Shown here: piece after piece, positions 5,438 to 53,065 of the stretch | Numbering within the stretch: the stretch's first letter is position 1 | Layout of the letters: each line of letters starts with the position of its first letter | Origin: Oscillospiraceae bacterium | GTDB lineage: Bacteria > Bacillota > Clostridia > Oscillospirales > UBA929 | Direction of reading: 5' to 3' | Length of the DNA stretch: 53,065 bases | Assembly (NCBI GenBank): GCA_031546715.1 | Contig: JAVBKA010000086.1 | Coordinates: 1 to 53,065, forward strand | The notes under the pieces: generated by a model | What the model was told of the DNA's origin: nothing | The model's input: the letters and a program-made list of their open reading frames with translations, nothing else | Database searches by the model: none | Made by a program: the position numbers and the translations under genes

Positions 5438-5744
5438 GATTTCTGTTTTAGGCGACCGTGACAGTGTTTCAGGCTTCTGCGCCCTTGGGCTTGACGTTCA
5501 CTTTTCGGACACAGCCGCCGAAGCGCGTCCTATCCTTAAAGCTCTCGCTCAAGGCGACACCGCCATCCTTTACATCACAGAACAGCTTGCTGCGGAGCTT
5601 CGCCCTGAAATTAACGCATATAAGGAAAAGCTCACCCCCGCCATAATCCCCATTCCTGGGAAATCGGGCTCATTGGGCATCGGCATGGATCAACTGAAAA
5701 GTGCCGTCGAGCGTGCTGTCGGTGCAAACGTTTTAGATACCTAA
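5421..5744 (+). CDS. V-type ATPase subunit F
   Basis: About 105 aa ORF (ISVLGDRDSVSGF..., ILYITEQLA) typical of V-ATPase F. It overlaps the end of subunit C. The start is GTG 5421 or ATG 5430. Confidence 0.8.
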   Translation: MKAMYKISVLGDRDSVSGFCALGLDVHFSDTAAEARPILKALAQGDTAILYITEQLAAELRPEINAYKEKLTPAIIPIPGKSGSLGIGMDQLKSAVERAVGANVLDT

Positions 5745-5894
5745 GCAACCACTGCTTAACGGTCATTATCATGCTCCCTTAACCCTGTCGCTTCGGCACC
5801 CAGCAATGCCTTGGAAGGCATAGCTGAGCACCTGCGCTTTTCGTGAAAATATGCAAGCATATTTTCACTGCCGGGTTAATCCGCACTTACCAAG
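5741..5894 (+). repeat. copy 1 of a ~145-nt structured intergenic repeat element
   Basis: Near-identical 5' and 3' parts shared with 23038-23195, and a variable central hairpin. It starts at the ntpF stop codon (CTAAG) and ends at CCAAG. Confidence 0.8.
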
Positions 5895-5914
5895 CTGCAA
5901 GCATTGCAGCTTTT
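5892..5914 (+). terminator. weak terminator-like hairpin between ntpF and ntpA
   Basis: AAGCTGCA-agcat-TGCAGCTT followed by TTTTCC. It lies inside the operon, so at most it is an attenuator. Confidence 0.3.
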
Positions 5915-5956: not shown

Positions 5957-7720
5957 ATGGGCAAAATTGTAAAGATATCTGGACCGCTGGTAGTTGCGGA
6001 AGGTCTTTCTGAGGCTAACATGTTTGACGTTGTACGAGTCGGCTCGCAACGTCTTATTGGCGAAATAATCGAAATGCGCGGAGACAGAGCTTCTATTCAG
6101 GTCTACGAAGAAACCGCAGGACTTGGACGGGGAGACGAAGTTGAATCCACAGGTGCACCACTGTCCGTTGAGTTAGGACCTGGCTTAATGGAAACCATTT
6201 ATGACGGCATACAGCGTCCTCTTGAGAAAATCCGCGAACTTACTGGTGACGTTATCACCCGTGGTATAGAAGTTTCACCTATCCCTAAGGATAAAAAGTG
6301 GGACTTTAAGGCTACGGCCAAGGTTGGCGACATGGTGGTGGGCGGCGACATATTAGGCACTGTTCAAGAAACCACCGTAGTTGAGCATAGAGTTCTTGTA
6401 CCTCGTGGTACACAGGGCAAAATTAAGAGCATTAAATCCGGAAGCTTTAACGTTACGGAAACTATTTGCGTAGTTACCACCGACAAGGGCGATGTAAACC
6501 TGCCTATGATGCAACGTTGGCCTGTCCGTGTAGGTCGTCCGTTTAAAGAAAAAATGGTTCCTAATGTTCCTATGATTACAGGACAGAGAATTATTGACAC
6601 TTTGTTCCCATTAGCAAAGGGCGGTACTGCGGCTGTTCCCGGACCTTTCGGCTCTGGTAAAACCGTTGTTCAGCATCAGCTTGCCAAATGGAGCGACGTT
6701 GACATTGTTATTTACATTGGCTGCGGTGAGCGCGGCAACGAAATGACAGACGTTTTGCGTGAATTCCCTGAAATCAAGGACCCAAGAACAGGCGAAAGCC
6801 TTATGAAGCGTACTGTTTTGATTGCAAACACCTCCGACATGCCTGTTGCCGCCCGCGAAGCGTCAATTTACACAGGTATTACAATCGCTGAGTATTATCG
6901 TGACATGGGCTATGACGTTGCCGTTATTGCGGACTCAACCTCACGCTGGGCGGAAGCTTTGCGCGAAATGTCAGGACGTTTAGAGGAGATGCCCGGTGAA
7001 GAAGGCTATCCTGCATACCTCGCCTCCCGTCTTGCTCAGTTCTATGAGCGCGCAGGACGTGTGTACACCCTCGGTTCAGGTGAACGCAAAGGCTCAATCA
7101 GCGCAATCGGCGCAGTTTCACCGCCGGGCGGCGACTTATCCGAGCCTGTCAGTCAGGCGACTATGCGTATTGTTAAGGTTTTCTGGGCTCTTGACAGTGC
7201 CTTGGCGTACCGCCGTCACTTCCCTGCCATAAACTGGCTAAATTCTTACAGCTTGTACGAGGATCGCCTTGCAGGCTGGTATAATGAAAACATTGACAAA
7301 ACCTATACAGCCCAGCGTGTTTGGGCAATGACTATATTGCAGTCTGAGGCAAGTTTAGACGAAATCGTTCGCCTTGTCGGTATGGACTCACTTTCCGCAG
7401 AGGACAGACTGACCATGGAAGTCGCACGTATGATTCGTGAGGACTTTTTACAGCAGGACGCCTTCTCTGATATTGACGCATTCAGCCCTTCGGAACGCCA
7501 ATTCGCGCTGATGAAAATTCTACGCCAGTTCCACATTCTAGCGCAGGACGCAATCAGCAAAAATGTTCCTATACAAAAAATCGTTGATATGCCTGTCCGT
7601 GAGAAAATCGGTCGCACTAAGCACACAGAAACAAGCGGCTACAAGGCATTATTTACAGAAATTGAAGCTGAAATGAAGGCTCAAATGGATGCTGCTGAAA
7701 GAGAGGCGAATGCGAAATGA
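5957..7720 (+). CDS. ntpA: V-type ATPase catalytic subunit A
   Basis: 587 aa with Walker [10 protein letters not shown] and the sequence around [26 protein letters not shown], both typical of A subunits. Confidence 0.95.
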
Positions 7721-9855: not shown

Positions 9856-10167
9856 ATGACAGAAATAGAGCTCCAGTTTCACAACGAAATGTTAGAGATT
9901 TATTTTAAGATAAAACGAGAAGTAAATTATTTTGCCAGAAGGTTTTTAGCCATGGTTAAAAGACGAGGTGGGTTGGACGCTGCAAAATGCCTAATATTAA
10001 AAAAGACGCCTTCACAAGGATTAAAAACTATTGGAAATGCAAATAAACCTGAGCTTACCGTGGAATATCTGGTGTTAAAGCCAGAGTATCATGGATTATT
10101 TACTGAACAGGAACGCCAACTGTGCCGTGAGAAACTCGCTGGACTTGCAAGTTTAGAAGAAAAATAA
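9856..10167 (+). CDS. conserved hypothetical small protein
   Basis: GAAAGAGG lies 7 nt before the ATG at 9856, and the track start at 9805 looks spurious. I could not assign a domain. Confidence 0.55.
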   Translation: MTEIELQFHNEMLEIYFKIKREVNYFARRFLAMVKRRGGLDAAKCLILKKTPSQGLKTIGNANKPELTVEYLVLKPEYHGLFTEQERQLCREKLAGLASLEEK

Positions 10168-10469: not shown

Positions 10470-10988
10470 ACTGGGATAAGCACTCTAACCAAACTCCCCG
10501 CACTTCCCCCACAAATATATAAATAGGTTGGCACTAAACAAAGTAAATGTTTAGTGCCAATTTGCCGTATTAATGCGAGATTATAATAAACAATGCTTAT
10601 GTAATACCTCAGCTTCTTTCCAATATCTAGGAAATTTTTCTTGAAATAACTAATAGTGCGGATGTTTAGAATCATCTAGCAAATTATCATTTTTAATAGC
10701 TTTCATAACATGACCACGGATAATATCATGTCGATATTGTGGTAACTCTTGTTGTTTTCACTAGAATATGATATAATAACCTCACGGCGTAAACGAAAGC
10801 AGAGCTTTCCACTCCTGAGAGAACATTGAATCACAAAAGTTTTGTCTGCGACAAAAATCAGCTACGCCGTGACGCTTTGCGTCTCTTTTATGATATAGTA
10901 TAAATGGCGAAATGACTTTCAGTTTAATAGTCAGAAGCAGTGTTTCTAAGAGTTTGAATAACTAAAATCCCCCTTGGAGGCGAAAAGA

Positions 10989-11276
10989 ATGCTTTCACAC
11001 GAAATAATTAGCAAACAGCTTGCAAAAGTTGCGTGCTCATACCCTGTAAAAAGATTGGCTTATTTTGGCTCATATGCCACAGGTAAACAAACTGAAGAAA
11101 GCGACTTGGATGTGTTGGTCGAATTCTTAACACCATCAGTTTCCCTCATTACTATTTCGGATATGCGTCTGAAAATTGAGGAGTCACTTAATATTTCAGT
11201 TGACTTAATTCACGCACCATTGCCAAAAGATTCCTTTATAGAAATTGGAAAGGTAGTTTCTGTCTATGAACAGTAG
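10989..11276 (+). CDS. mntA: nucleotidyltransferase-domain antitoxin (MntA-like)
   Basis: Minimal NTase motif FGSYATGKQTEESDLDVLVEF (GS...DxD). GGAGG lies upstream of the ATG at 10989. It overlaps the HEPN gene by 11 nt. Confidence 0.8.
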   Translation: MLSHEIISKQLAKVACSYPVKRLAYFGSYATGKQTEESDLDVLVEFLTPSVSLITISDMRLKIEESLNISVDLIHAPLPKDSFIEIGKVVSVYEQ

Positions 11277-11595
11277 AGAAGATCAAATTATTAGTAAAAT
11301 TCTAGGCGAAGCGACTTTAATAATTGGACTTATTGACGGGCTAGAGCGAGAAGCCTTTCTTACAGATGAGAAGACAAAAAGGGCAGTATGTATGACGTTG
11401 ATTAATATCGGCGAATTAGTTAAACTACTGTCGAGTGATTTTAGAGAATCTCACAGAGAAATCCATTGGAAAGCTATTGCTGGGTTGAGAGATATCACAG
11501 CTCATCGTTATCAGGCACTGCAGATGGGAGACATTTGGGTTACAGCGAAAGAGGATATACCATCATTGATTGAGAAACTTACCCAATTGCAATAA
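11266..11595 (+). CDS. hepT: HEPN-domain (DUF86) toxin (HepT-like)
   Basis: 109 aa helical protein with the Rx4H HEPN motif (LRDITAHRY), immediately downstream of the MNT gene and overlapping it. Confidence 0.8.
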   Translation: MNSREDQIISKILGEATLIIGLIDGLEREAFLTDEKTKRAVCMTLINIGELVKLLSSDFRESHREIHWKAIAGLRDITAHRYQALQMGDIWVTAKEDIPSLIEKLTQLQ

Positions 11596-18343: not shown

Positions 18344-20944
18344 TTGAAGAATTTTGATCCTACTCCCCGTGAAGATGATATTTTCGATGGTATTGACGAG
18401 CTTCTCAATTCGGGAGCTCCTATGAGTGACGACCCAGACACTGCCTATGAGGACATTATTTCAGAGGTTAATTTTAAGCGCGCCACCAATAACAGCATCG
18501 ACACCTCTGCTATCAGCATGGCAATGGGTTCAGAAAGCTCTAAACGCCGTCCATCCTCAAACGAACCCCAAAAGAAAGAGCCTTCCCCGCCCCCAGGCTT
18601 TTTTAACACTGCCACCTCACCTATTACAGATGATTTTGATAAAATATTCCAAGAAATAACATCAGGATTAAATTCCAATCTTTCCGATATACCCTCAAAA
18701 CCCGCAGCTCCCGCCCCTGTCAAGCCGTCTCCTGTGGCTGTAGCCGAAAAGGGCGTGACTGCTCCTGTCAAACCGTCTGCCGTGGCTGTAGCCGAAAAGG
18801 GCGTGACTGCACCTGTCGCCGCCAACGTCACCGCCCACGCCAAAGCTCCCCAAAAAACTTCCGCTAAGACTTCCTCTGGGGCTGGTGCCAATAAAGGGCT
18901 TATTTCCGAGGGCAGTAAGTCTGCCATTGAATATGGCATTGCAGGTACTGAAACCCCTGATACCTCTGAGTTTGCGCCCAAGCTTGCGCCATCTAAGACT
19001 GCGGCAACTAAGCCCGCTGACGGCAATATAATTTCTTCTATTGCCAAAAGAGCCAACTCCGCCCCTCCAGAAAAAAAGGAAGATAAACCCGCCCCTGCAA
19101 AAGATGACGCCGCCTTTTCGGAGGACTTCGCCAAGGTGTTCACGCCTATTAAAAACACAGAGCATGAATCCGACGAAGATTTTGAAGAAAGCGAAGTCAA
19201 CTACAAGGAAGCACCTACAATCACCCAGAGAATTCTCAAACATTTGCGCAAGCCTCTTCCTCCCCTTGAGGCACTGCCTCAGAACGCCTTTGCACGGGCA
19301 CAGAACTATGCACTATCTCTACGAGCACGTTCTTTTGTAGCGTTTTTGCTGACGTTGCCACTTATATATATTTCCCTATGTCAGGTTTTCCGCTTTTTAC
19401 CTGCTCCCGACATGTTGCTTTATAACCACGATTCCTATAGGTACATGCTTATTACCTCGGTACTGCTGATTTTAATTATGCTATGTGCCGTGGATATTAT
19501 CGCCAAGGGTTTTTCTGACTTATATCATTTGCGCCCCGGCGTTGAAACCTTAGTCGCCATTTCTTGCTGTACATCTCTGATTCATGTGATTTCCCTGTGC
19601 ATTGAGCTACCCGAAAGCATCACAATTATAGGCTTCACTCCATACACTGCCGTGACGGGGGTTGTGCTGTTCTTTACCTTGTGGGCAAGCTATTATCAGT
19701 ATAAGGCGTATCTTAAAACCTATGAAGCCTCTACACAATCTGAGGACGTAACCCCTGTGTACCACGTTCAAGGGCTGTGGAACTCCTCCTCCGGCTTCAT
19801 TAAAGCATCTGGGTCGCTGGAAGGCTTTGTGTCCAGAACGGAAGCCCCCGATTTGTCTAGACGCTTTATGTCCTATTTAGCTCCTTTGTTACTGGTCGCT
19901 TCGCTTTTGTTTGCGGTTATCGTTTCTGTGGGCAAGGGTCGTCCGGGGTATTTTTTCTGGGCATGGTCGGCTATTAGCCTTGCTACAACACCTATTTCTA
20001 CGTTATTTGTCTTTGCGCTACCCTTTTCTCGTGTTGCAAGCCGCCTTTTCCGAATGGGCGCGGCTGTTGCAGGTTGGTCTGCCGCTCGTGATTTCCGTGA
20101 CGGTGTCTACGCTGTTTCAAAAGATAGTGACTTTTTCCCAAGCGGAACTGTGGCTCTAAACGGGCTTAAGGTTTACGGCGAAAAAAATTCCTATGAGAAA
20201 ATCACCTCTTACGCATGTACCCTTTTGAAGGACACTGACAACTCTCTCTATCACGCCCTAGACAAAATCGCAAAGGACAGTGGACTTCCCACCTTGGAGG
20301 TTTCACATCTGGAATATGACGAAGGCGGCGGAATCAGAGGAGAAATTCTTGGTGACCGTGTGTTAATCGGCAACTCCGCCTTTATGCTTCGCATGGGCGT
20401 ACGGCTGCCAAAGGAGCTTAATATTAAAAAGGCTGTTTATGTGTCCGTTAATATGCAGCTTGGTGGAATATTTGCCGTTAATTATATTGCCGCCTCACAG
20501 GTTGAAAACGCTCTGCGTATTCTAAACCGAAGCAAAATTACGCCATTGTTGGCTGTTAAGGACTTCAACATCACTCCACTGATGCTAAAAGAGAAATTCG
20601 GAATCGATACCAATGACGTTGAATACCCTACTGTTGAAGGACGATTAAACCTTTCCGCCGCTACCCGTGAGAACTCGAGTATTCCACTGGGAATTGTTAC
20701 CAAGGAAGGGCTTGCTCCCTTTGCCGAATGTGTTGCAGGTGCGGCACGGCTGTACAAGGTATCCCGCATTAACCTGTTTTTGAACATACTATGCACCATC
20801 CTCGGCGTTTTAGCAATGTTTTACCTTACATATCTGGGAACTGCTGACGCTGCCCTATCCATTCTCCCAGGACATGTGCTTTTATACTTCTTTGTGTGGT
20901 GGCTGCCTATATGGTTAATATCTGCCGTCGCTAATCGTTATTAA
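18344..20944 (+). CDS. large membrane protein: disordered Pro/Ala/Lys-rich N-terminus plus degenerate P-type-ATPase-like C-terminal region
   Basis: 866 aa with a TTG start after AGGGGTG. The C-terminal part (GEILGDRVLIGNSAFMLRMGV...) resembles heavy-metal P-type ATPases, but the DKTGT and GDGxND motifs are not recognisable. Confidence 0.55.
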   Translation: MKNFDPTPREDDIFDGIDELLNSGAPMSDDPDTAYEDIISEVNFKRATNNSIDTSAISMAMGSESSKRRPSSNEPQKKEPSPPPGFFNTATSPITDDFDKIFQEITSGLNSNLSDIPSKPAAPAPVKPSPVAVAEKGVTAPVKPSAVAVAEKGVTAPVAANVTAHAKAPQKTSAKTSSGAGANKGLISEGSKSAIEYGIAGTETPDTSEFAPKLAPSKTAATKPADGNIISSIAKRANSAPPEKKEDKPAPAKDDAAFSEDFAKVFTPIKNTEHESDEDFEESEVNYKEAPTITQRILKHLRKPLPPLEALPQNAFARAQNYALSLRARSFVAFLLTLPLIYISLCQVFRFLPAPDMLLYNHDSYRYMLITSVLLILIMLCAVDIIAKGFSDLYHLRPGVETLVAISCCTSLIHVISLCIELPESITIIGFTPYTAVTGVVLFFTLWASYYQYKAYLKTYEASTQSEDVTPVYHVQGLWNSSSGFIKASGSLEGFVSRTEAPDLSRRFMSYLAPLLLVASLLFAVIVSVGKGRPGYFFWAWSAISLATTPISTLFVFALPFSRVASRLFRMGAAVAGWSAARDFRDGVYAVSKDSDFFPSGTVALNGLKVYGEKNSYEKITSYACTLLKDTDNSLYHALDKIAKDSGLPTLEVSHLEYDEGGGIRGEILGDRVLIGNSAFMLRMGVRLPKELNIKKAVYVSVNMQLGGIFAVNYIAASQVENALRILNRSKITPLLAVKDFNITPLMLKEKFGIDTNDVEYPTVEGRLNLSAATRENSSIPLGIVTKEGLAPFAECVAGAARLYKVSRINLFLNILCTILGVLAMFYLTYLGTADAALSILPGHVLLYFFVWWLPIWLISAVANRY
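18716..18811 (+). repeat. 48-bp tandem duplication inside the 866-aa ORF
   Basis: Two 48-bp units encode PVKPSPVAVAEKGVTA / PVKPSAVAVAEKGVTA, and a third unit starts but is partial. Confidence 0.85.
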
Positions 20945-20985: not shown

Positions 20986-22056
20986 ATGATTAAAGTAGCA
21001 GTAATCGGTCATGGTTATGTGGGTTCAGGAGTTGCGGAGCTTCTGCTTCGCCGCGAGGCTCAAGTGTCAAAAGTGCTGGGCGAGGAAGTAAAACTTGCCG
21101 CCGTTTGTGATGTCAAGCCCCTCCGCGCAGAAAGCTATGCGGATTTATACGTAAAAGACTTCTCAGTTATTGAGAACGACCCTGAAATTAATATAGTTGT
21201 TGAGACAATTGGCGGAATCGGCGCCGCACTGGACTTTACTCGTAGGAGCTTAAACGCTGGCAAGCATGTCGTCAGCAGTAACAAGGAGCTTGTTGCAGTC
21301 CACGGTGCGGAGCTTCTTGCGCTTGCACAGTCTCGCAACGTCAACTACCTGTTTGAAGCCAGCGTGGGCGGCGGCATTCCCGTTATCACCCCCATGACTG
21401 ATTGCATGACTGGCAACAATATTACTGACATTATCGGTATTTTAAACGGTACTACTAACTATATTTTAACCGGTATGGGCAATTGGGGAATGGCTCTTCG
21501 AGACGCTCTCGCCGAAGCTCAGGTTCAAGGTTATGCCGAACAAAACCCCACTGACGATGTGGAGGGTAAGGATGCAGCACGAAAAATCAGCATCTTGGCA
21601 TCCTTAGCATTCGGACGGCATGTCCGCCCCGAATGGGTGCCCACACAGGGCATCATGAGTATTACAAAGGAGCAGATAAAGGAAGCCGCAGATTTAAAAA
21701 TGACCATCAAGCTCCTAGGTCGCGCCAAGCTCTTTGACGACGGAAAAATTGCCGTATTGCTTGCACCCCATCTTGTTCCTGAAAATCACCCACTGCATAG
21801 TATTGCTGATGTTTTCAACGCAATCGTCGTCACAGGCGACGCCGTGGGCGACGTTATGTTCTACGGCAGAGGCGCGGGCAAGCTACCGACTGCCAGCGCA
21901 GTTATAGCTGATATTATGGACTGTGTCAGATATAAGTTAAACCGCAAGCCTATTTTCTGGACAGCGGAAACAGAAAACTTTTTACTCCCCGAAAGTGCCT
22001 TCGCCTATGAAAAGCACATTTTTGCTGACGGCTCACAAATGAGGATTCTCTTATGA
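20986..22056 (+). CDS. hom: homoserine dehydrogenase
   Basis: 356 aa with an N-terminal Rossmann fold (VIGHGYVGSG), NKELVA and LFEASVGGGIPVI motifs, and the C-terminal region. Confidence 0.9.
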   Translation: MIKVAVIGHGYVGSGVAELLLRREAQVSKVLGEEVKLAAVCDVKPLRAESYADLYVKDFSVIENDPEINIVVETIGGIGAALDFTRRSLNAGKHVVSSNKELVAVHGAELLALAQSRNVNYLFEASVGGGIPVITPMTDCMTGNNITDIIGILNGTTNYILTGMGNWGMALRDALAEAQVQGYAEQNPTDDVEGKDAARKISILASLAFGRHVRPEWVPTQGIMSITKEQIKEAADLKMTIKLLGRAKLFDDGKIAVLLAPHLVPENHPLHSIADVFNAIVVTGDAVGDVMFYGRGAGKLPTASAVIADIMDCVRYKLNRKPIFWTAETENFLLPESAFAYEKHIFADGSQMRILL

Positions 22057-22937
22057 TACGTGTCACCGTCCCTGCAACAAGTGCCAACATGGGCAGTGGC
22101 TTTGACACCATCGGAATTGCCTTGTCCCTGAGTAACGAAGTTCTCATTGACGAGAACGACCATCTGGACATCTCCTGCAAAACAGGGCACAATATTCATG
22201 CGGACACTAGAAATCTCATTTTTCGCTGCGCCCGCCGTGTTTACGACGAAGTCGGAAAGCTGCTTCACGGGCTGACTATCGTTGAATCCTGCAACATTCC
22301 CATGACAAGGGGTTTAGGCTCGTCCTCCGCGTGCACCGTTGCAGGGGTTATGGGTGCTAATGCGCTGTTAAAAAACCCGCTGAACAAACAGGATGTTATT
22401 GACCTTTGCGCCGTCATTGAGGGACATCCCGATAACTCAACTCCCGCTATTTTGGGAGGTTTCGTGGCGGCACTTTTAGAGGACGGCAAGGTTTGGCAGG
22501 TGCGTGTACCCATTGCAAAGCGTTTGCAATTTTGCGTTTTTGTTCCGGATTTCGAGCTAAAAACAGAAAAGGCCCGCGCTGCGCTACCGTCACTTATTTC
22601 GCATAAAGACGCTGTGTTCAACCTAGCTCGTGCGGCTCTCCTTGCAGGTTCCCTTGTGTCGGGCGACCTTCACAATATCGGCGTTGCAACAGAGGACAGA
22701 CTTCACCAGCCCTACCGCTTCGGTTTTATCCCACAAGGTGAGGAAATTATGCAAGCCGCCCGTCAGTTAGGCGCACTAGGCGTGTATCTTTCAGGGGCAG
22801 GGCCTAGCATAATCGCCATCGTCAACGACACCACCTTCGGCGACAGAGCTTCTATCCACTTTGCCCAGCATTTCCCAAGCTGGAAAGTGCTGACACTGGA
22901 GTGTGACGAAGTGGGCGCAGTGGTGGAAATCATATAA
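22053..22937 (+). CDS. thrB: homoserine kinase
   Basis: 294 aa with the GHMP kinase motif PMTRGLGSSSA. ATGA overlap with hom. Confidence 0.9.
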   Translation: MIRVTVPATSANMGSGFDTIGIALSLSNEVLIDENDHLDISCKTGHNIHADTRNLIFRCARRVYDEVGKLLHGLTIVESCNIPMTRGLGSSSACTVAGVMGANALLKNPLNKQDVIDLCAVIEGHPDNSTPAILGGFVAALLEDGKVWQVRVPIAKRLQFCVFVPDFELKTEKARAALPSLISHKDAVFNLARAALLAGSLVSGDLHNIGVATEDRLHQPYRFGFIPQGEEIMQAARQLGALGVYLSGAGPSIIAIVNDTTFGDRASIHFAQHFPSWKVLTLECDEVGAVVEII

Positions 22938-23037
22938 TTTTCTCGGAACACGGGATTTATTTAACTTTTTATCGGTAAACACATATAATAGTGATATGCG
23001 CGTTTGACTACCTTGATAGTTTTATCTTTTTGGCAGG

Positions 23038-23195
23038 CTAAGTAACCACAAATTAACTCTACGGCATTATCACGCTCCCTTAACCCTGTCGCTCCGGTAC
23101 CCTTCAATACCTTAAAAGGTCTTGACGAGTTCCAGCGCTTTTCGTGAAAATATGCTTGCATATTTTCACTACCGGGTTAATCCGCGCTTTCTAAG
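23038..23195 (+). repeat. copy 2 of the ~145-nt structured intergenic repeat element
   Basis: Same element as 5741-5894, with a collinear 121-nt core at 23065-23185. It is flanked by CTAAG on both sides and ends about 20 nt before the lysC start. Confidence 0.8.
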
Positions 23196-24998: not shown

Positions 24999-25478
24999 TC
25001 AAAGTGCCTTCAAATGGCTGCCATGCTCTAGCTCCATTTTTAGTGCAGTAGTTCGTGTAAAGTTCAAAGATTCCTCAACAGTACCAAGTCGTTTTTTAAC
25101 GCTGACGATGCTCTTGTCAATTTCGGTTAGATGCAAATCAACTGCGACAAGATGTTGATCGATTTCGTCAAAACGTTGATCCATTCCGTCAAAACGTTGA
25201 TCCATTCCGTCTAGACGTTGATCCATTGCGTCAAAACGTTGATCCATTCCGTCAAATCGCTGCTCCATTGCGTCAAATCGCTGCTCCATTGCGTCAAAAC
25301 GTTGATCCATTCCATCAAGTCGTTGATCGATTCCGTCTAGCCGCTGCTCTACGCCTTCTAGACGCTGTTCAACGCCATCTAGTCGTTGTTCAATTCTTTC
25401 AACGTTGACTTCAATGGCGGACAAGCCAGCTTCAAGTCTGACCTGACCTTCCCCTAGACGAAAAATTGAGCCTTGCAT
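24999..25478 (-). CDS. heptad-repeat coiled-coil protein (ORF ends at an in-frame TGA)
   Basis: 159 aa dominated by (D/E)QR(L/F)D(G/A)(M/I/V) heptads. No clear SD, so the start is uncertain. Confidence 0.55.
   Translation of the reverse strand: MQGSIFRLGEGQVRLEAGLSAIEVNVERIEQRLDGVEQRLEGVEQRLDGIDQRLDGMDQRFDAMEQRFDAMEQRFDGMDQRFDAMDQRLDGMDQRFDGMDQRFDEIDQHLVAVDLHLTEIDKSIVSVKKRLGTVEESLNFTRTTALKMELEHGSHLKAL
25146..25397 (-). repeat. about 12 tandem 21-bp units (coding heptads)
   Basis: Unit GTCAAAACGTTGATCCATTCC (+ strand). Several units are identical (for example 25167-25187 = 25188-25208) and others are diverged. Confidence 0.9.
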
Positions 25479-36835: not shown

Positions 36836-37204
36836 CTATATGACTTCGGGAGCTAATGACAGGATTTTCATGTAATCCTTATCACGAAGCTCGCGCGCCA
36901 CTGGGCCAAAGATGCGTGTGCCCTTTGGGTTTTTGTCATCACGGATGATAACTCCCGCATTGTCGTCAAAACGGACGTATGTGCCGTCGTTGCGACGAAT
37001 GCTGTCCGCTGTGCGGACGATAACTACCTTAACGACTTCACCTTTTTTAACAACGCCACCTGGTGTTGCCTTACGCACTGATGCGATGATGACGTCGCCT
37101 ACTCCGCCGTATTTACGACCTGAGCCGCCTAATACACGGATGCATTTAATCTCCTTGGCGCCGGTATTGTCGGCTACCTTGAGGTAAGATTCTTGTTGTA
37201 CCAT
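36836..37204 (-). CDS. rplN: 50S ribosomal protein L14
   Basis: Sequence [20 protein letters not shown]. Confidence 0.96.
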
Positions 37205-37693: not shown

Positions 37694-38124
37694 TTGGAGT
37701 CTCCTCCTTCATCAGCGTTCTGGCGTGCAACGAATTTGCATTTAACAGGAAGTTTGTGGGCTGCAAGGCGCATTGCCTCACGAGCTGCATCCTCTGGAAT
37801 TCCTGCCATTTCAAACATTACACGACCGGGCTTTACTACTGCAACCCAGTACTCAGGCGAGCCTTTACCGGAACCCATGCGGGTTTCAGCGGGCTTTTCT
37901 GTAACAGGCTTGTCAGGGAAAATCTTAATCCATACCTGACCACCGCGCTTAGTGGCACGGGTCATGGCAATACGTGCGGCTTCTATTTGCTGGCTTGTAA
38001 TCCAGCATGGCTCTGTAGCCATTAAGCCGAACTCGCCGTGGGATACAGTGTTGCCGCGGGTAGCAATACCCTTCATGCGACCACGATGTACACGACGATA
38101 TTTAACTCTTTTTGGTAAAAGCAC
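37690..38124 (-). CDS. rplP: 50S ribosomal protein L16
   Basis: Sequence [19 protein letters not shown]. Confidence 0.96.
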
Positions 38125-39194
38125 TAGTTGCTACCTCCTTCGTTATGAGGCGCTGCCGGAGCAGGGCTCGTAGCTGGTGCTGCTGACGGGGCATTGTTGT
38201 TGAAGGTTCCTGCCGGACGATTATTGTTAAAGGTTCCTGCTGGACGATTGTTGTTGAAACCGCCACCTGCTGGACGATTGCCGCCGAAGCCACCGCCACC
38301 CGCTGGACGATTGCCGCCAAAGCCGCCTCCGCCTGCTGGACGATTTCCACCAAAGCCGCCACCACCACCTGCTGGACGATTGCCGCCGAAGCCGCCTCCG
38401 CCTGCCGGACGATTGCCGCCGCCACCGTAGCCGCCGCCTGAGCGATTTCCGCCGTATCCGCCCTTGTTGCCGTCTTTATCGTAGCCACCGCGGTCTGGAC
38501 GTTTGTCACGACGCTCTTCGCGTGGACGTGGAGCTTCGATTGTGCGCGGTCCCATACGGTTACCCGCAGTAAGGACTTCGCCTTTATAAATCCAAACCTT
38601 TACGCCGATACGACCATAGGTTGTGGCTGCTTCAGCAAAACCATAGTCAATGTCTGCACGAAGGGTTTGGAGGGGAATTGTACCCTCATGGTAATGCTCT
38701 GAGCGGGCAATTTCTGCGCCGCCTAAACGACCTGAAACTGCAGTTTTGATGCCACGTGCGCCTGCACGCATTGAACGCATCATGCTCTGCTTCATTGCAC
38801 GGCGGAAGCTAATGCGCTTCTCAAGCTGCTGTGCAATATTTTCGGCAACCAACTGAGCGCAAACGTCTGGGGATTTAACCTCGACGATGTTCAGCGCAAC
38901 AGGTTTGCCAATCATTTTTTCAACATCCAAACGGAGCTTTTCAATATCGTTACCGCCGCGACCAATGACAACGCCTGGTCTTGCGCAGTGTACGAAAAGT
39001 CTGACTCTGGTTGAATCTCTCTCGATTTCAATACGGGGAACGCCTGCTGAATAGAGCTTCTTTTTCAGAAATTCTCTAACCTTAAAGTCCTCGACAATTA
39101 AGTCTCCGACCTTGTTGTTTTTAGCATACCAGCGTGAATCCCAGCCTTTTATAACGCCGACGCGGAAGCCGTGTGGATTAACTTTCTGACCCAA
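38124..39194 (-). CDS. rpsC: 30S ribosomal protein S3 with ~140-aa Gly-rich repetitive C-terminal tail
   Basis: Canonical S3 for about 215 aa ([13 protein letters not shown]...), then a Gly-rich tail with [11 protein letters not shown]-like repeats, 356 aa in total. Confidence 0.93.
38205..38460 (-). repeat. 8 tandem 27-36-bp units inside the rpsC 3' region
   Basis: On the + strand the core CCTGC(T/C)GGACGATT recurs at 38209, 38236, 38266, 38299, 38332, 38368 and 38401, with a variant at 38437. Confidence 0.9.
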
Positions 39195-52033: not shown

Positions 52034-52558
52034 ATGAACAATTTACCGCAAAGAAAACACGTTCGATTAAAAAATTACGATTACGGCGACAATGGCGCAT
52101 ATTTTATAACGTTCTGCATTAAAGATAGGCACGAATTGTTAGGCGCGCTTGTTGTAGGGAACGGCGTCCTCGACGTTCCGAAGGTTGAGTTATCTGAACT
52201 TGGAGAGATTGTTGAAAAGCAAATTATTGAGCTGGATAATCATTATGACCATGTGGATATTAATAAATACATCATTATGCCTAATCATGTGCATATGATT
52301 GTGATTGTGAAAGACCAAAAAAGCGGTGTGTCGGGGACGCAGAGCGGTGTGTCGGGGACGCCACACCCTACAAATGCGGTTATTCCATCGTTACTTTCTA
52401 CGCTTAAACGGTTCACAAATAAAAGAATTGGTTATTCAATATGGCAATCCTCTTACCATGATCATATTATCCGTGACGAATTAGATTACCAAAACCATTG
52501 GCAATACATTGACGAAAACCCGGCTAAATGGGCAGCAGATAAATATTATGAAGGTTGA
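52034..52558 (+). CDS. IS200/IS605-type Y1 (HUH) transposase-like protein, RayT-like
   Basis: 174 aa with the HUH motif MPNHVHMIV and the catalytic-Tyr region WQSSYHDHIIRDE, a single-domain size. AAGGAGAAG SD. Confidence 0.8.
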   Translation: MNNLPQRKHVRLKNYDYGDNGAYFITFCIKDRHELLGALVVGNGVLDVPKVELSELGEIVEKQIIELDNHYDHVDINKYIIMPNHVHMIVIVKDQKSGVSGTQSGVSGTPHPTNAVIPSLLSTLKRFTNKRIGYSIWQSSYHDHIIRDELDYQNHWQYIDENPAKWAADKYYEG

Positions 52559-52611
52559 AGAAATGTCGTTGCTGTTATATTGACATCAAGCGGATAAGTG
52601 AAAAATGCAGA

Positions 52612-53065
52612 GATTCAAGGCGGGGACGTAAAGCGGTGTGTAAGGACGCGGGGCGGTGTGTCGAGGACGCCACACCCTACACGTGCGGTTATGCTTTCTA
52701 ATACGAATTGTTGGGCGCGGTTGTTGTAGGGAACGGCGTCCTCGACGTTCCGAAGGTTGAGATATCTGAACTTGGGGAGATTGTCGAAAAGCAGATTATT
52801 GAACTGGATAATCATTATGCCAAATCACGTGTATGTGATTGTGGTTGTGAAAGACAAAAAGGCGGTGTGTCGGGGACGCGGGGCGGTGTGTCGGGGACGC
52901 CACACCCTACATGTGCGGTTATCCCGTTGTTGCTATCTAAGGCGTTGGGAACGGTTGTTGTAGGGAACGGCGTCCTCGACGTTCCGATGGTTGAGTTATC
53001 TGAACTTGGAGAGATTGTCGAAAAGCAGAAGACAAAAGAGCGGTGTGTCGAGGACGCCACACCCT
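52612..53065 (+). pseudogene. array of decayed partial copies of the internal part of the RayT-like gene (runs off the window)
   Basis: 52701-52955 is collinear with about 52130-52420, with a 31-bp deletion between ATCATTATG repeats. 52954-53065 restarts the same segment with a larger deletion. 52612-52700 repeats the GGTGTGTCG(G/A)GGACGCCACACC module. Confidence 0.75.

Follow-up and report, generated by a model that had tools for sequence, protein, structure and literature searches.

Two short spacers on one contig, one inside a V-type ATPase operon and the other inside a hom-thrB-ask cluster, carry copies of the same non-coding sequence of about 150 nt, which raises the question of whether this sequence is a small mobile repeat, a structured RNA or a piece of regulatory DNA. 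We studied it in a stretch of 53,065 nt, which is called the window here. The contig comes from an uncultured Oscillospiraceae lineage, and no database relative of its V-ATPase A subunit exceeds 79% identity. The two copies are direct and co-oriented, at 5741-5894 (copy 1) and 23039-23195 (copy 2). Copy 1 is located between ntpF (ends at 5744) and ntpA (starts at 5957) within the V-type ATPase operon, where the ORF ending with TAA at 5742-5744 matches ATP-synt_F (Pfam PF01990). Copy 2 is located between the gene for a GHMP-type homoserine kinase (22053-22937) and that for aspartate kinase in the hom-thrB-ask cluster, and ask starts (at about 23222) about 30 nt downstream of it. Both copies are oriented like their flanking genes and, judging from this gene layout, the plus strand of the element is presumably part of both mRNAs. 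The best-supported reading is that the element is mobile now or was so in the past.

Boundaries and conservation of the two copies

A repeat search of the window aligned 5764-5894 with 23065-23195 in a gap-free register of 131 nt with 83% identity, and similarity between the copies ends exactly outside a pair of flanking pentamers, giving the element sharp boundaries. The parts of the unit are as follows.

5741..5745, plus strand: left flanking pentamer CTAAG of copy 1, which holds the ntpF stop codon TAA (5742-5744)
5746..5889, plus strand: body of copy 1, 144 nt, in the ntpF-ntpA intercistronic spacer
5890..5894, plus strand: right flanking pentamer CCAAG of copy 1, a 4/5 match to the left pentamer
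23039..23043, plus strand: left flanking pentamer CTAAG of copy 2
23044..23190, plus strand: body of copy 2, 147 nt, in the thrB-ask spacer
23191..23195, plus strand: right flanking pentamer CTAAG of copy 2
Conserved end blocks of the element: CTAAGYAACCAC ... CCGGGTTAATCCGCRCTT

The preliminary description of this DNA had proposed collinear and gap-free cores of 121 nt with almost identical outer blocks and a diverged centre. Collinearity holds over the longer register of 131 nt at the identity given above and, in the numbering of that description, the outer blocks agree at 35 of 38 and 48 of 51 positions, while the centre agrees at 19 of 32. The substitutions crowd into the centre (15 of 41 columns against 5 of 75; Fisher p = 1.4e-4). 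The flanks it had listed, CTAAG/CCAAG for copy 1 and CTAAG/CTAAG for copy 2, with the ntpF stop codon inside the left CTAAG, were also found in the sequence. The repeated unit reaches about 30 nt to the left of the stem that had been thought to close the whole element, and about 25 nt to the left of the core can be aligned with a 4-nt indel. Including the flanking pentamers the unit is 154-157 nt long, which is below the 500-bp limit given for miniature inverted-repeat elements (MITEs), and its GC content (45-49%) gives no AT-richness relative to the window (45.8%). The pentamer common to both copies may be a specific target that is duplicated or the element's own direct repeat, and the two cannot be separated because the same pentamer flanks both copies.

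A two-sequence covariance model (R1) scores the copies at 136.5 and 134 bits and the next full-length candidate in the window at 13.5 bits, and chance resemblance of the two copies is therefore excluded. No third or degenerate copy was found in the window by blastn (word size 7) or by R1 with filters off; the lesser R1 matches (21.5 bits at most) are the element's own palindromes on the other strand. The blastn count of further copies, suggested earlier, thus ends at two for the window, and blastn against plasmid and phage collections gave no match. As the only two known copies are 17% diverged, there is no sign of recent amplification.

The window also holds several other repeats. At 25075-25410, at least 11 tandem repeats of 21 nt (7 codons) are located in a minus-strand ORF of 159 aa (24999-25478), which encodes a coiled-coil protein with DUF7310 and XhlA-like matches. 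Tandem repeats of 33-36 nt exist at 38226-38462 in minus-strand ORFs near 38124-39194, and a 48-nt tandem duplication (18713-18808) is contained in an ORF of 866 aa (18344-20944) with no Pfam match. Besides, two 40-nt stretches (115-154 and 36853-36892) have CTAATGACAGGAT...AAGCTC in common and share 70% identity. Apart from repeats, adjacent small ORFs at 10974-11595 encode MNT-like nucleotidyltransferase and HepT-like ribonuclease domains, which looks like a toxin-antitoxin pair.

Predicted fold, strand signals and searches for relatives

Both copies fold better than shuffled sequences do. The RNA fold of the plus strand has -43.4 and -36.0 kcal/mol (z -3.4 and -4.0), that of the minus strand has -56.6 and -49.2 kcal/mol (z -3.65 and -4.5), and with DNA parameters the z-scores range from -3.3 to -5.0. 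The common architecture consists of an outer stem of 3-4 bp, a 7-bp TTAACCC stem, a palindrome hairpin of 11-12 bp, a 3-bp stem and a central hairpin of 17 positions. Its main parts are listed here, with no strand assigned.

5779..5785: 5' arm TTAACCC of the closing stem, which pairs with GGGTTAA at 5873-5879 and is invariant between copies
5795..5832: diverged central hairpin of copy 1 (17 positions), in which two pairs show compensatory change against copy 2
23096..23133: the corresponding hairpin in copy 2, which has three internal mismatches and whose stems are kept via G-C to T-A and G-C to A-T
5843..5868: 26-nt palindrome GTGAAAATATGC-AA-GCATATTTTCAC of copy 1
23144..23169: 26-nt palindrome GTGAAAATATGC-TT-GCATATTTTCAC of copy 2

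The palindrome arms (12 bp) are 100% identical between copies, and reverse-complementing the 26-mer of copy 1 gives exactly that of copy 2, as the two differ only in the central AA or TT. A small hairpin, GCTTCGGC in copy 1 and GCTCCGGT in copy 2, keeps a loop of the UNCG class (UUCG and UCCG). All hairpins of the preliminary description, namely the UNCG-type one, the palindrome with its AA/TT centre and the central one, are therefore present. The pairing of TTAACCC with GGGTTAA was confirmed as well, and the unit continues further to the left of this stem.

Over the 42 pairs of this architecture, 95% of the cells are standard pairs, against 28-44% after the partners are shifted by 1-3 columns. 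In three pairs both bases changed and pairing was kept: T-A to C-G in the outer stem, and the G-C to T-A and G-C to A-T changes of the central hairpin. One further pair changed from G-U to A-U, and the four unpaired cells are all in the central hairpin. The two covarying central pairs reported earlier are thus real and the one in the outer stem is added to them, but the covariation between two copies is not significant, as 49 of 500 shuffles equal it. We also made random mutants of one copy (300), in which the substitutions matched the observed ones in number, type and distribution among regions, and compared these mutants with the real partner copy. On the minus strand the partner keeps folding energy better than 99.3% and 100% of the mutants and on the plus strand better than 86% and 99.7%, figures that depend on the region partition chosen and say nothing on whether RNA or DNA is the selected molecule. 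Since the partner copy outfolds the random mutants, foldability has been retained beyond chance.

To judge between RNA and DNA, the strands can be compared. All three compensatory changes go from one Watson-Crick pair to another, and because of this they are symmetric between strands and fit DNA hairpins equally well. The wobble pairs give conflicting signals. In the central hairpin of copy 1, 16 of 17 positions pair on the minus strand (three of them G-U, with one U-U mismatch), and on the plus strand these three G-U pairs become A-C or C-A mismatches, while the UUCG/UCCG hairpin needs the plus strand and has its G-U pairs there. None of this favours a strand-specific RNA. The probability that the AA/TT flip came from two independent substitutions is about 0.1, and such a flip is what a hairpin-mediated DNA inversion would produce.

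The earlier failure to match the element to an RNA family was borne out by Rfam. For the whole window at the gathering threshold the single match was a tRNA, and for both element regions even E <= 10 returned only noise, scoring 12-14 bits where the thresholds are 48-90 bits. We then searched public DNA collections (185,579 species-representative genomes, JGI metagenomes and IMG/VR) with four independent seeds, all of whose matches were due to chance. The 26-nt palindrome had 0 matches in genomes and 0 in viral sequences, and in metagenomes it retrieved 17 unrelated palindromes in unrelated contexts. The closing stem, searched as a gapped 12+12 pattern, had 0 matches in genomes and 0 in metagenomes. 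A 17-mer from the 5' part gave 34 matches with similarity limited to the seed, and a 17-mer from the 3' part gave 39 matches, 0 of them fitting R1. Besides, R1 had 0 matches in 92 loci from relatives. Both copies share a minus-strand ORF, whose peptide has no counterpart among 5.8 billion predicted proteins, and thus other copies have not been mis-called as genes anywhere.

Several other identities were considered for the element and rejected. As a small protein gene, the shared minus-strand ORF shows 62% protein identity against 83% DNA identity, and its stops differ between copies. An intrinsic terminator is contradicted by the lack of a T-run. Nor do the copies represent att sites or bound a mobile unit of 17 kb, as the remaining part of the V-ATPase operon and housekeeping genes occupy the interval between them. 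An integron attC site was rejected by hand inspection because its core and inverse-core motifs do not fit.

Spacers in relatives and comparison with known repeats

The closest genome compared, GCA_031550325.1, has the same gene order at both loci. Its ntpF-ntpA spacer is 44 nt, against 212 nt in the window, and its thrB-ask spacer is 29 nt, against 284 nt, in a comparator that is itself distant (79% NtpA identity, a different genus-level lineage). Given these lengths, both copies read as insertions. In three further contigs with close ask homologues there are 4-29 nt upstream of ask, where one contig duplicates the GCA_031550325.1 locus and the upstream gene of the other two is not thrB. When the element and one pentamer are removed from copy 1, a spacer of 63 nt is left, which begins with a native hairpin. 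Gain of the element at a CTAAG site in the lineage of the window would be the simplest history. With a comparator at 79% NtpA identity, loss in the relatives may be an alternative to gain.

Among 58 other V-ATPase operons, the median length of the ntpF-ntpA spacer is about 30 nt, and 6 of the 58 have one longer than 100 nt. Because of these six, the ntpF-ntpA junction may be a recurrent landing site for inserted sequence. In a locus of GCA_031556185.1, a relative, the spacer at 9895-10060 contains a GC-rich insert of about 165 nt that has no relation to the element and no unusual structure (z 0.1 and -0.5).

Other parts of the two spacers were also inspected. Immediately next to copy 1, at 5892-5912, is a 9-bp hairpin, AAGCTGCAA-GCA-TTGCAGCTT, whose foot falls within the right CCAAG of that copy and which probably belonged to the ntpF-ntpA spacer from the outset. 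Neither promoter-like nor terminator-like sites were found in or beside copy 1. The element alone leaves about 100 nt of the thrB-ask spacer unaccounted for, and this extra segment (22938-23038), which lies upstream of copy 2 and is absent from relatives, holds a promoter-like TTAACT-17-TATAAT (22961-22989) and a weak terminator-like hairpin (22941-22955).

Among known repeats, the bcr repeats of the Bacillus cereus group are the closest analogues. Like bcr1-bcr18, the element is restricted to a lineage, non-coding, found between genes as those mostly are, and associated with a pentamer at its ends. Kristoffersen et al. in 2011 reportedly predicted that some bcr groups fold as RNA with compensatory changes. 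However, the sequences are not similar, the element has CTAAG as its pentamer and its host belongs to Oscillospiraceae, not to Bacillus; bcr1 copies number from tens to more than 100 per genome, against 2 copies of the element seen in 53 kb. The bcr repeats are 100-400 bp long and their mobility is tied to a TTTAT pentamer (PMC6542083).

The hallmarks of MITEs are a length below 500 bp, flanking direct repeats, intergenic location and stable stem-loop transcripts (PMC10969869). The element resembles prokaryotic MITEs such as Correia, ERIC, RUP and QMITE in being shorter than 500 bp, non-coding and intergenic, with flanking direct repeats and predicted stem-loop transcripts (PMC10969869, PMC2229807), but it differs in having neither inverted repeats at its termini, nor a known parent insertion sequence (IS), nor AT-richness relative to the window. 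The tips do not match as inverted repeats. The best inverted end match, the 7-nt TTAACCC, is set back from the tips by about 33 nt on the left and about 10 nt on the right, and in shuffles this subterminal TTAACCC/GGGTTAA is not significant as a terminal inverted repeat (p about 0.07-0.08). No parent IS with the same ends was found in the window or in the plasmid, phage, genome, metagenome and viral collections. The proposal of a MITE-like mobile element in the preliminary description thus stands in part: the empty sites in the nearest genome and the sharp, pentamer-flanked boundaries agree with it, and the tips, the mere two known copies and the missing parent IS go against a strict MITE. By its sequence features the element resembles MITEs in the broad sense and is not one in the strict sense.

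With REP, BIME and REPIN sequences the element shares its position as a palindromic extragenic repeat between co-directional operon genes, on a contig with a RAYT-like gene (PMC3116915, PMC3733652). The difference is that REPs are 20-40 nt long and REPINs are two inverted REPs, whereas the element is a 150-nt composite with three different hairpins. Nor is it a repeat flanking a RAYT gene with a GTAG or CGTC tag, as GTAG lies by the palindrome only in copy 2, on the minus strand. In lacking terminal inverted repeats and having a fixed left pentamer it would fit an IS200/IS605-derived element (PATE), but its left and right hairpins are unrelated to each other.

The RAYT-like gene (52034-52558) encodes a protein of 174 aa resembling the REP-associated tyrosine transposase, with the HUH motif IIMPNHVHMIV, and matches NCBIfam NF047646 (E = 1.5e-17) with 63.8 bits, which is below the 80-bit cut-off. 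It is accompanied by its own repeat, a GTAG-headed 21-mer GTAGGGAACGGCGTCCTCGAC that occurs four times, confined to 52154-52980 and found nowhere else in the window. The inverted partner of this 21-mer lies inside the RAYT-like gene and downstream of it, making REPIN-like inverted pairs, and partial copies of the gene repeat to the contig end (52034-53065 region).

Explanations of the element and their implications

Taken together, we consider it somewhat better than an even chance that the element is a lineage-specific, non-coding interspersed repeat of about 150 bp, of the MITE/REP/BIME/bcr kind, which was inserted at CTAAG in two short spacers. A transposase or recombinase supplied in trans would insert it by recognising the conserved end blocks, and CTAAG would represent a target of 5 bp that is duplicated or, alternatively, a specific target to which an end of the element is similar. 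The hairpins would be features of the DNA, and the AA/TT flip would arise as by hairpin-mediated inversion. Because the copies point the same way as the flanking genes, the element would be passively carried in the V-ATPase and hom-thrB-ask transcripts, where a structure of -36 to -43 kcal/mol may incidentally affect mRNA processing, stability or translational coupling.

The retention of the fold is also expected of a functional RNA. Such an RNA would act either in cis, as a leader or an intercistronic element of the ntpA and ask mRNAs (plus strand), or as an antisense small RNA from the minus strand, with selection on the fold. The fold z-scores (-3.4 to -4.5), a fold kept beyond the expectation from random mutation, the three compensatory pairs and the UNCG-class loop in both copies (UUCG, UCCG) all agree with it, as do the position of both copies directly upstream of a gene with the same orientation and that of copy 2 downstream of the promoter-like TTAACT-17-TATAAT. 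We nevertheless regard this as rather unlikely. Rfam has no match even at E <= 10; the four seeds, the covariance model and the ORF-peptide search gave no homologue; the relatives lack the element at either site; and the covariation is not significant at n = 2 (49 of 500 shuffles). Besides, the strands conflict, with the central hairpin on the minus strand (antisense to both operons) and the UUCG hairpin on the plus strand, there is no promoter or terminator for an independent transcript, and V-ATPase and aspartokinase have no obvious shared regulatory logic. Beyond the fold itself, the RNA-family reading is unsupported. A still more speculative version, to which we give a small chance, is that something new is present here: a previously undescribed structured RNA that spread as a mobile module and acts in antisense or in cis on the V-ATPase and aspartate-pathway operons, for which the minus-strand form would be likeliest because the central hairpin pairs throughout there, or alternatively a new CTAAG-targeting single-stranded DNA element moved by a Y1/HUH enzyme.

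A single-stranded DNA element moved by a Y1/HUH enzyme of the IS200/IS605 or RAYT type, with the left CTAAG as an unduplicated target, the right CYAAG as the element's own cleavage site and the hairpins as recognition structures, was weighed separately, as a variant of the mobile reading that deserves to be kept in view, and seems improbable. It would fit the absence of terminal inverted repeats, the constant pentamer 5' of the left end with a near-identical one forming the right end, the strong hairpins predicted for single-stranded DNA, and the palindrome loop flip, which points to DNA hairpin extrusion; a RAYT-like Y1 gene is on the same contig (52034-52558). In IS200/IS605 elements, however, the subterminal hairpins at the two ends are alike, while the left hairpin (UUCG) and the right hairpin (26-nt palindrome) here are unrelated. 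Around the RAYT-like gene is another GTAG-headed repeat, dissimilar to the element, and the match of the gene product falls below the curated cut-off (63.8 against 80 bits). On the minus strand, the palindrome of copy 2 is directly preceded on its 5' side by GTAG, which tags one REP super-family (PMC3733652), but copy 1 has GCAG there. Finally, a duplicated piece of regulatory DNA, in which the 26-bp palindrome is the operator of a dimeric transcription factor controlling both downstream genes, is very improbable, even with 12-bp arms 100% identical in the two copies and both copies upstream of a gene start, for conservation extends over 150 nt rather than 26, copy 1 is within an operon and lacks a nearby promoter-like site, and the same palindrome in metagenomes sits in unrelated contexts. 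Operators of Rex, CRP/FNR and CodY had been rejected in a hand comparison with their consensus sequences, as the palindrome spacing misfits.

If the interspersed-repeat reading is right, the element is one more lineage-specific small repeat in a well-known class and its value is mostly practical. It would mark spacers that tolerate insertions, and it may break assemblies. Its strong structure in two essential operons could also alter the expression of ntpA-B-D and ask. Should many copies with strand-specific covariation be found, the element would become a new RNA motif or a target-specific mobile element of the poorly studied gut Clostridia.
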